Origin: an uncultured Gemmatimonadales bacterium
Lineage (GTDB): Bacteria > Gemmatimonadota > Gemmatimonadetes > Gemmatimonadales > GWC2-71-9
Direction of reading: 5' to 3'
NCBI GenBank assembly: GCA_963748035.1
Contig: CAVVHO010000003.1
Coordinates: 646,500-710,499, forward strand
DNA length: 64,000 nt
A program made the position numbers and the translations under genes. The notes beneath the pieces are model-generated. The model saw only the letters and a list, made by a program, of their open reading frames with translations, was not told where the DNA came from and searched no databases. Below, one piece after another: positions 6,552 through 11,477 of the stretch (its first letter is position 1; the number at the start of each line of letters is the position of its first letter).

Positions 6552-7589
6552 GTGACTCTGCCGCTCTCCAGTTTCGTTTCTCGACTTCCGCCGCGCCTCG
6601 AGATCGGGACGTATCCTTCGCCGCTGGAGGACCGTCCCGAGCTCGCTCGTCATTTCGGTGCCGAGATCCTCATAGTGAAGCGAGAGGACCTCAACGGATC
6701 ACCCTTCGGGGGAAACAAGCTCCGGGCGATTGAGTGGCTGCTGCCGACCTGCGGACGCGCCATGGTCACCATGGGGGGCTATGGCTCTACCTGGTGTGCG
6801 GCGCTCGCCGCGGCGAGCGAACACAACCAGACCCGCGTCCACGTCGCCCTGTTCCCCCAGCCATGGTCGCCAACGGTGGCGGGAACGCTGTCCACCACCA
6901 TTGCGCGGGGCGAAGTGCACCTCGCGGCTTCGCGCTGGGGCCTTCCCGGCGCGATCGTCGCGGCATGGCGTGGGGCCCGTAGAGACGGTCCGGTCAGCTG
7001 GCTGCCGGCGGGCGGCGCAACACCGGTTGCCGTGCTGGGGAGCGTGAATGCTGCCCTGGAGCTGGTCGCACAGGTCAGTGAGCGCGGCTGGCGACGTCCC
7101 GATGCGATCGTCGTTCCGCTGGGAACCGGTGGCACAGCGGCCGGTCTCCTCGTGGGGATGTGGCTGGCGGGATGGAAAGTCAAAATCTGTGCGGTTCGCG
7201 TGACTGATCCATGGTATGCGAACCGTCACCGCGTCCTTTCGCTCGCCCGGAAGACCCTCGCTGTCCTGCGCGAGCTAGGGGCTGCCCCCACCCCCGGACC
7301 CGCCTCGCTCCGTGTCGTGGGTGACCAACTCGGCTCAGGCTATGGTCACCCGACCCCTGCGGGTGAGGAACTGCGGTCCCGAATGGCGGATGCCGGCATT
7401 ACCGTTGACCTGACCTACGGCGCGAAGGCGTGCGCCGCGATCGCCACCCTGGCGAGTTCCTTCCCGGCCATTTGCTTGTGGCATACTTTTGACGCCAGGC
7501 TCGTGTCCCAGCCGTTGCAAGAGCACCCTCTCCTGCGCAGCGCGCGCGGGCACGCGGAGATGTTGTGGCCCCACCTGAAATCGATCTGA
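6552..7589 (+). CDS. PLP-dependent enzyme, ACC deaminase / D-cysteine desulfhydrase family
   Basis: KREDL...GGNKLR (PLP lysine), VPLGTGGT, DLTYGAKA; start at GTG 6552, preceded by TACGCT 8 nt upstream. Confidence 0.85.
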   Translation: MTLPLSSFVSRLPPRLEIGTYPSPLEDRPELARHFGAEILIVKREDLNGSPFGGNKLRAIEWLLPTCGRAMVTMGGYGSTWCAALAAASEHNQTRVHVALFPQPWSPTVAGTLSTTIARGEVHLAASRWGLPGAIVAAWRGARRDGPVSWLPAGGATPVAVLGSVNAALELVAQVSERGWRRPDAIVVPLGTGGTAAGLLVGMWLAGWKVKICAVRVTDPWYANRHRVLSLARKTLAVLRELGAAPTPGPASLRVVGDQLGSGYGHPTPAGEELRSRMADAGITVDLTYGAKACAAIATLASSFPAICLWHTFDARLVSQPLQEHPLLRSARGHAEMLWPHLKSI

Positions 7590-8779
7590 CGGTCTATCCC
7601 GACGAGTGTGACGCCTACGGTCATCTGAACCAGGCGGCGTTCCTCGCGCTGTTCGAGCGCGCGCGCTGGGAAATGCTGGCTCGTGGCCCCGGGATGGACT
7701 TCTTCACCCGCCAAGGCTCATGGCCCGCGGTCCGTAAGACGCTGGTCGAATACCACGCCCCGGCCCTTCCCGGCGATGTCCTCCGCTTCACCCAGGTGCT
7801 TGTGCACCTCGGGCGCACCAGCTTCACCATCCGGCAGACAGCCCGCCGACTGCGGGATGACTCCCTGATGGCGACCGCGGAACTGGTCTTCGTCTGTGTC
7901 GACCAGCAAGGGGCGCCCGTTCCGGTGCCGGAGTCGCTTCCGCAGGTCATGGCTGACCGCCAGCTGCCAGGAAACCTCCGCCGGATTGCCGTCAACGGTG
8001 TGAACCTGGCGGTTGATGTCAGAGGCAAGGGCCCGGCCGTGCTATTCATTCACGGCTACCCGCTGGATCACACAATGTGGGAACACCAGCTTGGGCACCT
8101 GGACGGCTGGATGCGGATCGCGCCAGATCTGCGCGGGATGGGCCAGTCGGACGCACCGGACCTTGGCTACAGCATGGCCACCTACGCGGAAGATTTGCTC
8201 GCGCTCCTCAATACGCTGGGTGTCGAGCGAGTGACCCTTTGCGGCCTGTCCATGGGGGGATACGTCGCATTCGAGATCATGCGACGGGCGCCAGAACGGG
8301 TGCGTGCTCTGATTCTGATAAACACGCGTGCGGACGCGGATAGCGCCGACGCTCGGAAGGCCCGGGATTCGGCGGCGGCAGCGGCGCGGGAAGGGGGCGC
8401 AGAATTGGTCGCCGAGTCGATGTTGCCGCGCCTCCTGGCCCGCACTGCCCCGGCAAACAACCCCGAACTGGTGGAACGACTCCGGCGCATGATCGAGGCC
8501 ACACCCGTTGCCGGCATACTCGGCGCGCTCGGCGCCATGCGCGACCGGCCCGATAGCCTCGCCCTATTGCCGGCCCTCACCGAGACACCGACCCTCGTCA
8601 TCGCCGGGGACGACGATCAGATTTTGCGGCCGGATTCGTCCCAATCCATGGCCGACGCAATTCCCGGAGCTCGACTGGCGGTGCTTCCCGGCGCCGGCCA
8701 CCTCACACCGCTGGAATTGCCGGAGGCGGTCACTGCCCTATTGGCGGACTTCTTGGCCGGCGCGGGACGTTCCACCTAG
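7565..8779 (+). CDS. Fusion of hot-dog acyl-CoA thioesterase (YbgC/4HBT-like) and alpha/beta hydrolase (PcaD-like)
   Basis: N-terminal DAYGHLNQA motif; C-terminal HGYP, GLSMGG nucleophile elbow, GDDD acid and AGHL histidine. Confidence 0.85.
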   Translation: MAPPEIDLTVYPDECDAYGHLNQAAFLALFERARWEMLARGPGMDFFTRQGSWPAVRKTLVEYHAPALPGDVLRFTQVLVHLGRTSFTIRQTARRLRDDSLMATAELVFVCVDQQGAPVPVPESLPQVMADRQLPGNLRRIAVNGVNLAVDVRGKGPAVLFIHGYPLDHTMWEHQLGHLDGWMRIAPDLRGMGQSDAPDLGYSMATYAEDLLALLNTLGVERVTLCGLSMGGYVAFEIMRRAPERVRALILINTRADADSADARKARDSAAAAAREGGAELVAESMLPRLLARTAPANNPELVERLRRMIEATPVAGILGALGAMRDRPDSLALLPALTETPTLVIAGDDDQILRPDSSQSMADAIPGARLAVLPGAGHLTPLELPEAVTALLADFLAGAGRST

Positions 8780-8824
8780 CGCTGCAACCTTTCTCAGGGC
8801 TCCAACGTCTATACTTGTGAGCGA

Positions 8825-9012
8825 AGGCAACCCACTTCGGTGGCGCCGGCGCTTGAGAGACCCTTCCTTCCACGCCCCGAAACCGCGGCCAAGCAGTACG
8901 GTTCCGGGGCGCCTCTCTTTTCCCAGGTCCCCAAACCGTCTGCGCCGGAAATAAGCGACCCCCCGCCAGAGGGCGGAGGGTCGGTAAACCGGGAGTGTCC
9001 TAGGGGCTGCCT
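8825..9012 (-). ncRNA. Candidate ~190-nt structured non-coding RNA, family unassigned
   Basis: Nested helices 8825-33/9004-12, 8833-41/8988-97, 8846-52/8942-48, 8853-62/8926-34, 8872-85/8899-912 and side hairpin 8956-83; six A-C mismatches on + become G-U pairs on -. Confidence 0.5.
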
Positions 9013-9021
9013 GGCGAATTG

Positions 9022-9285
9022 CTATTTCTTCGGTTTCCCCGGCGGCGTGTCGCTGGTGAAGATGACCTTGTTCATCTCGATGTACGACTGCATGTTCGCG
9101 GGGACATCCTCCTCGGGGAAGATCGCGGTGACCGGGCACTCCGGCTCGCAGGCCCCGCAGTCGATGCACTCGTCAGGGTGGATGTAAAGCATGTCCTCAC
9201 CCTCGTAGATGCAATCCACGGGGCAGACATCCACGCAGCCGCGATCCTTGACGCCGATGCAGGCTTCAGTGATCACGTAGGTCAT
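9022..9285 (-). CDS. Dicluster (7Fe/8Fe) ferredoxin, FdxA-like
   Basis: MTYVITEAC...[11 protein letters not shown]...[13 protein letters not shown]; SD AAGAGGAG before ATG 9285. Confidence 0.95.
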
Positions 9286-9410
9286 GCCGCTACTCCTCTT
9301 GGGGAATTTCACTAGCTCGGCGAGGCCCGGTCCTGCGGACGCGGGGAGCCAAGATGCCAAGTATTACGAGGGGCTAAGGTGCTGCGCAAGGGGCGATTAA
9401 GTTACGCCTC

Positions 9411-11477
9411 ATGAACAGCGCGGTGTCCGCGTTCGTCGTTCTCCTCGTTCTCGCCCTTGGAAGTTCGACCAGATCCCTCGCTGCCCAGGCTTGTGACTCG
9501 CCTCGGCCGCTGGCGCTGGTTCTGTCCGGGGGCGGCGCGAAGGGTCTCGCTCACATCGGCGTACTGCGGGTGTTGGACAGCCTGGGTATTCGCCCAGATC
9601 TCATCGTCGGGACCAGCATGGGCTCCATCGTCGGGGCCATGTTCGCGAGCGGCTACAGCCCCAACCAGATCGAAGAGCAGGCGAGGAGCCTTGGACTGGC
9701 GCAGCTCTTCAGCGGCGAGGGGTTGCGTACACCCCGATCGCTTGGCGAGCGTCGCCCGTTGGTTGTGTGGCAACCCGGGGCGGGCGGATTTCGGACTGCA
9801 GACGCGAGCGCAAGGCAACAGGCCGTCGGGGCCGCCCTCAATCGGGTCCTGCTGAACGGCAATCTGACCGCGCGTGGCGACTTTGATTCCCTCCCCATTG
9901 CGTTCCGTGCCATCGCGACAGATCTGCGCAACCGGCAGCAGGTCGTGCTTCGCGGTGGCGACCTCGCACAGGCAGTTCGCGCCAGCATGGCGGTGCCCCT
10001 GGTGTTTGATCCCGAGCGGATTGATGGTCGCGAGCTCATCGACGGCGGCATCGCCGCGAACGTACCAGTCGAAGCGGCCCGGCGCGCGGGAGCTGCGCGG
10101 GTCATAGTCTCCGACGTGAGTTGGCGACCGCCGGACTCGGTGCGCGCCGACAATCCACTTGTGATCGCCGATCTGCTGGTTTCATATCTGTTCACGCAGC
10201 CGCTCGACTCGCTCTATGCGGATGATCGCCTGGTGCGCCCCGAGGTGGACTCCTTCGCTACCCTTGACTTCAACGCACAGAAGATCGGGACAATCATCCG
10301 GCGGGGACACGAGGCGGCCACGGCGGCTTTCGCGGGCTACCCTATCTGTGACGCTGGCGGGGTTCCGCGCGCGCGGCGCGCAGTCTATCGGATTCAGCGA
10401 ATCCGCATCGCCGAGGGCCCGGACTCCCACGATCGCCTGTTGCGCCGGCAGCTCGGCATCGAAGAGGGGGACTGGCTAGACGTTCCCGGGTTGCGAACAC
10501 GGCTCCAGACCTTGAGCGAGTCCGATGACTACCAAGAGGTCTGGATTCATCCTACCGGCCCATCGGACTCGCTCACGCTTTCCCTCGTTACGCATCTGGC
10601 CCCCGCGCGGCTGGTGGCGCTCGGGTTGAGTTACGACAACGACCTCGGCGGCCAGATGTGGTTTGGCGGAGTGGATCGGGGCACTCTAGTCCCCGGACTT
10701 GAGAGCTCCGCCCGACTTACCCTGGGTGAGCTACGCCAAGAACTCGGCTTGGGGTTCAATCCTGCCGCGATAGGGCAGCATCAGCGGCGATTCGTGCTGT
10801 CCGGCGCCATCGCGAGAGAGTCGATTCGCCGGTTCACCTCTGGCGGCGCTGCCGCCCCGGAGGTTCGCACTAGGGAGGTGACGGGGTTTCTGGGAATCGA
10901 AGGGCGATTCGGGCGCGAATGGCTAGTGGCTCTCGGTGGGTTCGGCCACGCCTGGGCTGCCCCAGGTTCCGACGGGACCAACGCCTTAGGCGGGCTGCTG
11001 CGGATTACGAGCGGACCGCGTTACCGCGGTACCGGCATTTGGGGCGAGGGAGTACTCACCAATACCTACCGCAGGGTAGAGGTGGAGGGTCGACATGCCA
11101 TTGGCATCGGGGCCGGGGTGAGACTTACGCCCAGCGTCCGATTCGGTTGGGGCAAGAACCTTCCTCTGGAGCGTACGTTCCAGTTGGGTGGTCTGGACGG
11201 CTTCCCGGGATTGAACATCGGGGAGATTCGCGGTGATCGGGAGCTGTTCGCCCAAGCGCTATTCACGCGACGTCTGGTGGGGCCTGTGGAACTTCGCGTC
11301 AGCGCGGCTAGTGGCCGCGCTGTGTTTGGGGGACCCACCCTGCCCTACGGCCATTGGCTGTCGGGCGGGCGTGTGGGGTTCGGGGCCGACACTCCGATCG
11401 GCCCAATTCGGGCCGAGTACGGAGTGTCTCGTGGGGGCAGGAACGGGGTGTTTCTCCGGCTCGGAGAGTGGTTCTAA
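9411..11477 (+). CDS. Patatin-like phospholipase fused to POTRA-like and Omp85-like barrel (PlpD/type Vd-like)
   Basis: Signal peptide; GGGAKG, GTSMG and DGG patatin motifs; C-terminal beta-strand-rich region ending in GEWF. Confidence 0.85.
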   Translation: MNSAVSAFVVLLVLALGSSTRSLAAQACDSPRPLALVLSGGGAKGLAHIGVLRVLDSLGIRPDLIVGTSMGSIVGAMFASGYSPNQIEEQARSLGLAQLFSGEGLRTPRSLGERRPLVVWQPGAGGFRTADASARQQAVGAALNRVLLNGNLTARGDFDSLPIAFRAIATDLRNRQQVVLRGGDLAQAVRASMAVPLVFDPERIDGRELIDGGIAANVPVEAARRAGAARVIVSDVSWRPPDSVRADNPLVIADLLVSYLFTQPLDSLYADDRLVRPEVDSFATLDFNAQKIGTIIRRGHEAATAAFAGYPICDAGGVPRARRAVYRIQRIRIAEGPDSHDRLLRRQLGIEEGDWLDVPGLRTRLQTLSESDDYQEVWIHPTGPSDSLTLSLVTHLAPARLVALGLSYDNDLGGQMWFGGVDRGTLVPGLESSARLTLGELRQELGLGFNPAAIGQHQRRFVLSGAIARESIRRFTSGGAAAPEVRTREVTGFLGIEGRFGREWLVALGGFGHAWAAPGSDGTNALGGLLRITSGPRYRGTGIWGEGVLTNTYRRVEVEGRHAIGIGAGVRLTPSVRFGWGKNLPLERTFQLGGLDGFPGLNIGEIRGDRELFAQALFTRRLVGPVELRVSAASGRAVFGGPTLPYGHWLSGGRVGFGADTPIGPIRAEYGVSRGGRNGVFLRLGEWF

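Follow-up and report, generated by a model that had tools for sequence, protein, structure and literature searches.

A candidate ECF-dependent small RNA gene between convergent hydrolase and ferredoxin genes in Gemmatimonadales

Small RNAs (sRNAs) driven by ECF sigma factors are well known, and C-rich or anti-Shine-Dalgarno sRNAs that act without Hfq have been described in the Firmicutes (RsaE/RoxS) and in Rhodobacter (the CcsR 'cuckoo' RNAs). GsrN of Caulobacter reportedly uses an exposed C-rich loop as its functional pairing site. This sRNA is dependent on sigma-T / EcfG (PMC5869019), and the enterobacterial sRNAs MicL, MicA and RybB depend on sigma-E (PMC4102768, PMC1804206). Our search of the literature on Gemmatimonas and Gemmatimonadota gave no paper that deals with sRNAs. 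Gemmatimonadota are an abundant soil phylum whose members are rarely cultured and, to our knowledge, almost nothing is known of their post-transcriptional regulation.

We analysed a 64,000-nt stretch of DNA from an uncultured Gemmatimonadales bacterium (hereafter, the window), and in it the spacer 8780-9021, which lies between two convergent genes, with a patatin-like gene beyond the ferredoxin:

7565..8779, plus strand: thioesterase (4HBT) and alpha/beta-hydrolase fusion gene (Pfam PF13279/PF00561)
9022..9285, minus strand: small ferredoxin (4Fe-4S) gene, convergent (Pfam Fer4 families)

As set out below, we consider it likely that 8782-8923 forms, on the plus strand, the gene of an uncatalogued base-pairing sRNA of ~105 nt, which would be ECF-dependent and embedded in a 3'UTR.

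Extent of the conserved element

The original prediction, drawn from this one sequence, was of a ~190-nt minus-strand RNA at 8825-9012, a rod with a bubble, possibly 6S-like and RNA polymerase-binding. Its helices are indeed present: when 8820-9015 of the minus strand was folded with RNAfold, a closed rod was obtained, in which the ends close and both the 12-bp side hairpin and the apical stem form, at -103.5 kcal/mol (z = -3.07; none of 200 shuffles was as good), and the plus-strand fold of the same stretch gave z = -1.35. The closed fold of this sequence thus speaks for the rod.

Comparison with relatives delimited a different unit. In a blastn search of the spacer against 60 relatives, 25 of the 36 same-genus genomes matched, over ~8782-8922 only. 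The remainder, 8923-9012, could not be aligned among these 25 same-genus spacers, and the closing, GC and middle stems all take one of their two strands from this half. When the full spacers of relatives were folded, the segment equivalent to 8819-8854 paired locally in ~20 of 24 informative spacers on the plus strand and in ~12 of 24 on the minus strand (e.g., with 26 of 29, 28 of 37 and 30 of 32 paired bases local), and the closure of the rod was not reproduced in most relatives. The non-conserved half also holds a minus-strand hairpin:

8956..8983, minus strand: predicted intrinsic terminator of the ferredoxin gene, a 12-bp stem with the tail CTTATTTCC (minus-strand terminator-scan match)

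In the alignment of relatives, the ferredoxin-proximal part carries a differing T-tailed hairpin in each species, at a variable distance. The side hairpin that had been counted as part of the RNA is not conserved; it is the predicted ferredoxin terminator, outside the conserved RNA. Since one side of the stems falls in the non-conserved 8923-9012, and since the 8819-8854 segment of the relatives is mostly self-pairing, we conclude that the predicted 190-nt rod is an accident of one sequence, in which a conserved element was joined in silico to its neighbour's terminator.

What stands of the original prediction is a conserved, structured part, which is real but spans ~105 nt (8817-8923) and not 190 nt. 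Its apical stem is likewise real and covaries strongly, but the conserved 8782-8824 had been missed. The comparison of orthologous spacers, suggested at the time as a check, yielded conservation and covariation for the 8782-8923 unit and not for 8923-9012. Also borne out was the view that the element is no leader of a same-strand gene and that it belongs to no recognised family: no Rfam family was found at gathering score in the whole window and, at E <= 10, the region 8700-9100 gave noise matches only, on the ferredoxin terminator. The suggested resemblance to 6S RNA did not survive, as the rod-plus-bubble shape is not conserved in relatives and the 6S model (RF00013) found no match in the whole genome, either at E <= 0.001 or at E <= 10. 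This last result cuts both ways, for it leaves the lineage's own 6S RNA still to be placed.

The predicted RNA, its strand and its promoter

Within the conserved unit, we distinguish the following features:

8782..8793, plus strand: predicted -35 region, C-TGCAAC (8783-8788) followed by C and a T-tract; CTGCAAC[CT]TTT is invariant in 27 distinct genus copies
8805..8811, plus strand: predicted -10 region, (A/G)CGTCTA; 26 of 27 genus copies share an invariant GCGTCTA, and the window has ACGTCTA
8817..8923, plus strand: predicted sRNA, ~105 nt, its start placed 6-8 nt past the -10 region and its end in the U tail
8819..8854, plus strand: P1, a 5' hairpin, of which sequence and length vary among clades while the hairpin is kept (per-sequence folds)
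8861..8871, plus strand: CU box CCCUUCCUUCC, anti-Shine-Dalgarno-like, a candidate seed, predicted to be unpaired in most plus-strand folds
8873..8911, plus strand: P2, a stem of 13 positions (8873-8885 / 8899-8911) defined by covariation, with one A.C here
8886..8898, plus strand: P2 loop, 13 nt, CGGCCA-R-GCAGU-W, of nearly invariant columns
8912..8923, plus strand: pyrimidine/U tail CCUCUCUUUUCC past P2, recognised by composition

The window's RNA scored 103.9 bits against the covariance model R1, and the plus-strand fold of the predicted sRNA has an energy of -44.5 kcal/mol (z = -2.08). Across 55 matches (53 distinct) aligned to R1, 98.6% of P2 cells are paired, 10 of 15 pairs show compensatory change and none of 500 shuffles was as good, counts that model fitting leans towards structure; the same four variable P2 pairs covary already in a plain MAFFT alignment. 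The basal helix of P1 covaries as well (GAGCG/CGYUY, GACGG/CCGUU, GGCGG/CCGCY, GAUGG/CCGUC). Between the two hairpins, the CU box reads [UC]CCU[UC]CC[CU]UCC family-wide, with UCCUUCCCUCC in many relatives. A small ORF was also considered and rejected, as indels in P1 among relatives break any frame.

The GC-rich P2 is a probable intrinsic terminator. In the 12 nt past P2, the plus strand has a mean of 5.3 U (10.7 pyrimidines), compared with 2.2 U on the minus strand. The U-tract is weak in several species (minimum 2 U per 12 nt); in the window, 6 of the 8 nt from +2 of the tail are U, and other genera have better U-tracts, e.g., CUCCUUUCUUU. P2 is missing from the terminator-scan list because its 13-nt loop exceeds the scan's loop limit. 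An invariant loop is unusual in a mere terminator.

The strand was judged from pairs that can form on one strand only. In the 13 main pairs of P2, 37 cells are GU/UG, which pair on the plus strand only, and 6 are AC/CA, which become G-U on the minus strand only; at one P2 position, U-G is common to 16 sequences of several genera. When P1 was folded independently on each strand (MFE), 121 G-U pairs were counted on the plus strand and 52 on the minus strand, with the plus strand higher in 37 sequences, the minus strand in 6 and a tie in 6; the relatives behind these counts are not independent, but several clades contribute. Whole-molecule folding energies did not separate the strands. The minus strand has no U-tail and, in the same-genus alignment, no conserved upstream sequence and no conserved promoter. 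In the window itself, one A.C of P2 on the plus strand becomes a G.U on the minus strand, as it does in one other clade, and this pair partly explains why a single-sequence reading favoured the minus strand. Promoter, tail and the G-U/A-C counts over 53 distinct sequences all favour the opposite strand, and we conclude that the predicted RNA is on the plus strand, not the minus. The reading as a minus-strand rod is largely refuted by the comparison with relatives, and we regard it as very improbable.

The same counts bear on whether the element acts as RNA at all. P2 is an inverted repeat in the DNA, and the promoter-like boxes could be operator half-sites, as might be expected of a protein-binding palindrome or a recombination site. 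An excess of G-U pairs on one strand (37:6 in P2, 121:52 in P1) makes sense only in RNA, however, and the boxes, which are direct rather than palindromic, are found again ahead of genes in a single orientation, so that a purely DNA-level element is scarcely credible.

The predicted promoter precedes the RNA. The conserved block begins 2-5 nt past the hydrolase stop codon in all 27 distinct genus copies, both boxes are kept in 27 of 27, and the span from GCAAC to CGTCTA is 28 nt in 26 of 27, with a spacer of variable sequence; a T-tract, [CT]TTT[TC], follows the AAC in all copies. In the window, TGCAAC (8783-8788) and CGTC (8806-8809) leave a gap of 17 nt between AAC and CGTC, the arrangement of an ECF (group 4 sigma-70) promoter, and other genera of the family have TGAAACC[TA]TTT ... 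GCGT[CT] at the same position. The published ECF -35 with a T-tract is tGAAACnTTTt, and its -10 is CGTA/CGTC (PMC5758882); the motif predicted at our locus matches this form. No sigma-70-like site was found in 8500-9500. A plus-strand start near 8822 had been offered as a second option in the original prediction, and that position is close to the start we favour, but the box on which it relied, TATACT, is not the conserved one, which is GCGTCTA and ECF-type.

The pattern TGCAACYTT-N14-CGTM gave 93 matches in 38 of 39 genus genomes, compared with 3 for a reversed control. When the genome was scanned with a PWM built on the genus promoter, the further sites were weak only, and the genus-wide pattern search was more informative. 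Because the motif is bipartite, keeps its spacing and recurs before genes, we read it as a promoter and not as part of a minus-strand RNA.

Distribution, neighbourhood and candidate mode of action

Model R1 found the RNA in 34 of 150 family genomes (at least 90% complete) and in 15 of 64 genera. In a sample of the order, it was found in 20 of 61 genomes of the sRNA's own family, in 0 of 27 of a second family and in 1 of 62 of a third (a weak, partial match); the denominators include two unpublished genomes, G112 and G212, neither of which matches and neither of which underlies any positive claim made here. A full copy of promoter and sRNA (100.6 bits) was also met in a MAG labelled 'uncultured Actinomycetes bacterium' (CAWFJU010000001.1, 5180-5296; locus L029), which points to mislabelling or misbinning of a Gemmatimonadota contig.

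In another genus, some genomes have an additional match that scores lower, near position 1501 of loci L083 and L085-L088 (G064, G172, G163, G165 and G068). We take this to be a paralogous RNA candidate, as it shares P2 and the loop. Its promoter-like region differs (GCAACC[AC][TA]TT...CCCGCAT[CT]C), and within its unpaired 5' part are 1-3 copies of CGCAGUA(C), a sequence that recurs in the 3' half of the P2 loop (GCAGUA). The candidate adjoins a conserved divergent gene.

The promoter motif recurs elsewhere. In most genus genomes, another conserved copy sits on the same contig as the sRNA, at a distance of 15-18 kb and ~75 nt ahead of the start codon of a Ser/Thr kinase-TPR gene. In this genome (G000), we list it together with two further copies, both rightly oriented to their genes, and with a candidate sigma gene:

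G000:C3:640150-640176, minus strand: promoter copy of the kinase-TPR gene, ~6.3 kb left of the window's start (locus L059, 2951-2977)
G000:C3:331161-331187, plus strand: promoter-motif copy before an M61 glycyl-aminopeptidase-PDZ gene, with the -10 box CGTA
G000:C5:404433-404459, plus strand: promoter-motif copy before a MacB/FtsX-like permease gene (motif match)
G000:C3:954876-955409, region to 955465, minus strand: ECF sigma gene (locus L061), with a predicted GGCAACCCTTT-N-GCGTC promoter of its own at the same spacing

The kinase-TPR leader contains the conserved blocks ..GCCGUCUCC.. and CCUAACUUGCAGACC ahead of the start codon, and the leader of the MacB/FtsX-like permease gene contains the CU-box-like CCCUACCUUCCAAC.

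A search for AAC-N17-CGT within 450 nt upstream returned 1 of the 27 sigma-70-family genes of the genome, the ECF gene at L061. It is followed by a gene for a 217-aa protein without Pfam match, possibly an anti-sigma, and then by one for a TPR/HEAT lipoprotein. We did not accept the L061 factor as the cognate sigma: its close orthologues occur family-wide regardless of the sRNA, and two sRNA-bearing genomes have paralogue-level matches only.

The neighbourhood is well kept. The order hydrolase, sRNA, convergent ferredoxin, patatin was found in 19 of 19 examined loci of other genomes, in which the ferredoxin is 76-93% identical and always convergent to the sRNA, and synteny on the hydrolase side is maintained in all sRNA-carrying genera. 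The terminator scan found no terminator between the hydrolase stop and P2, and the hydrolase mRNA probably ends at P2 as well. At L073 and L078 (genomes G169 and G065), the sRNA's 3' end is directly followed by the stop codon of the ferredoxin gene; by this layout the convergent ferredoxin mRNA must enter the predicted P2 hairpin of the sRNA, with antisense overlap or a shared bidirectional terminator as possible consequences.

Such an arrangement is what would be expected if the element acted in cis, with the ECF promoter driving convergent transcription towards the ferredoxin gene, and antisense or transcriptional interference with its expression under stress, and/or with P2 serving mainly as hydrolase terminator. 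In its favour are the convergent ferredoxin linkage, present in every genus with the element, the transcripts of L073 and L078, which have to overlap, and the unterminated stretch from hydrolase stop to P2. Within the genus of the window, however, the ferredoxin's own terminator lies ~30 nt past the sRNA end, so that overlap is not expected, interference leaves the conserved CU box and the invariant loop unexplained, and the ferredoxin translation start shows no special complementarity to the sRNA (z about 0). We consider this reading unlikely.

In the mechanism that we favour, that of a base-pairing sRNA, an ECF sigma factor would transcribe the sRNA under some stress, jointly with the Ser/Thr kinase-TPR gene that carries the same promoter, and P2 would terminate the sRNA and the upstream hydrolase mRNA alike. 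The CU box, which is complementary to Shine-Dalgarno sequences and most likely the seed, would then pair with the Shine-Dalgarno regions of target mRNAs and block their translation, without Hfq. Hfq (PF17209), ProQ and CsrA gave no Pfam match in this 98.4% complete genome. The chaperones of this lineage are either unlocated or divergent, and the same goes for its 6S RNA. A lack of the three proteins fits a G/C-rich, chaperone-independent seed, or else a partner protein at the invariant loop.

Two pairings were tried and set aside. The P2 loop can form 7 bp with the 5' UTR of the kinase gene in this genome (CGGCCAA/UUGGCCG), which are not kept in relatives, and, in about 35 genomes, the sRNA paired no better with the translation start of the ferredoxin gene than shuffled controls did. 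When the genome was searched for sequences exactly complementary to the loop or the CU box, many matches were obtained, mostly within coding sequence, and no clear target.

The invariant loop invites a different emphasis, namely that the RNA is a decoy or scaffold for a protein, in which the P2 loop and the GCAGUA repeats of the paralogue would be the binding site and the CU box secondary. The loop is nearly invariant over 15 genera while its stem covaries, the paralogue shares P2 and loop and adds 1-3 CGCAGUA(C) copies in its unpaired 5' part, and the genome gave no match to the known chaperones. These points are offset by the want of a candidate protein, by the single copy of the motif in the main family, and by the fact that the repeats might just as well serve as several seeds for a single mRNA; we hold this reading to be quite improbable. 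A bolder combination, in which the P2 loop is the docking site of an RNA-binding protein and the sRNA one arm of a new ECF-sigma/Ser-Thr-kinase stress circuit, strikes us as unlikely. If it were true, the circuit would have its own RNA chaperone or a sequestered regulator, and would go beyond a base-pairing sRNA.

Comparison with described systems

To 6S RNA, the locus is alike in size and in the rod-like minus-strand fold of this single sequence only. The closing stem and bubble are not conserved, and the conserved unit is half as long and on the other strand; on every testable point, the locus fails as a 6S RNA.

With RsaE/RoxS and CcsR, the predicted sRNA shares an unpaired pyrimidine-rich motif complementary to Shine-Dalgarno sequences, and by analogy chaperone-independent pairing is plausible. 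It has one CU box in a linker, whereas those RNAs carry several such motifs in loops, and there is no homology: Rfam models of these families gave no match at 8700-9100. The likeness to GsrN is that of a structured sRNA of ~100 nt which, together with a small protein-coding regulon, is driven by an ECF-type sigma (here predicted); the two differ in phylum, promoter subtype, fold and sequence.

The sigma-E-dependent MicL, MicA and RybB resemble the locus in being small RNA genes with an ECF-family sigma promoter and an end formed by a hairpin and U tail, features that are predicted here. By analogy with them, the expected action would be translational repression through pairing near ribosome-binding sites. 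They differ in that the candidate seed here is an internal CU-rich box and not the 5' end, in that no Hfq gene was found here, and in having no sequence or Rfam relationship to the locus. MicL adds a further likeness: it has a promoter of its own at the 3' end of a protein-coding gene and uses the terminator of that gene (PMC4102768), which is the arrangement predicted here. At the sequence level, the locus has the marks of a 3'UTR-embedded sRNA of the MicL/DapZ type, namely a promoter of its own past the hydrolase stop and no terminator before P2; its promoter lies just past the stop codon, unlike that of MicL, which is inside the coding sequence.

The locus holds a predicted sRNA gene of well-defined limits, strongly supported by covariation. 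With it come a clear-cut ECF promoter motif and a very small conserved regulon, consisting of the sRNA and the Ser/Thr kinase-TPR gene, and the sRNA can be used for annotating about a quarter of the family. For an organism seemingly without Hfq, ProQ and CsrA, it further gives an entry point for identifying sigma factor, stress signal and targets. We regard the sRNA family as real and uncatalogued, but the kind of system is not new, and its closest functional counterparts are those of enterobacteria and Caulobacter described above.
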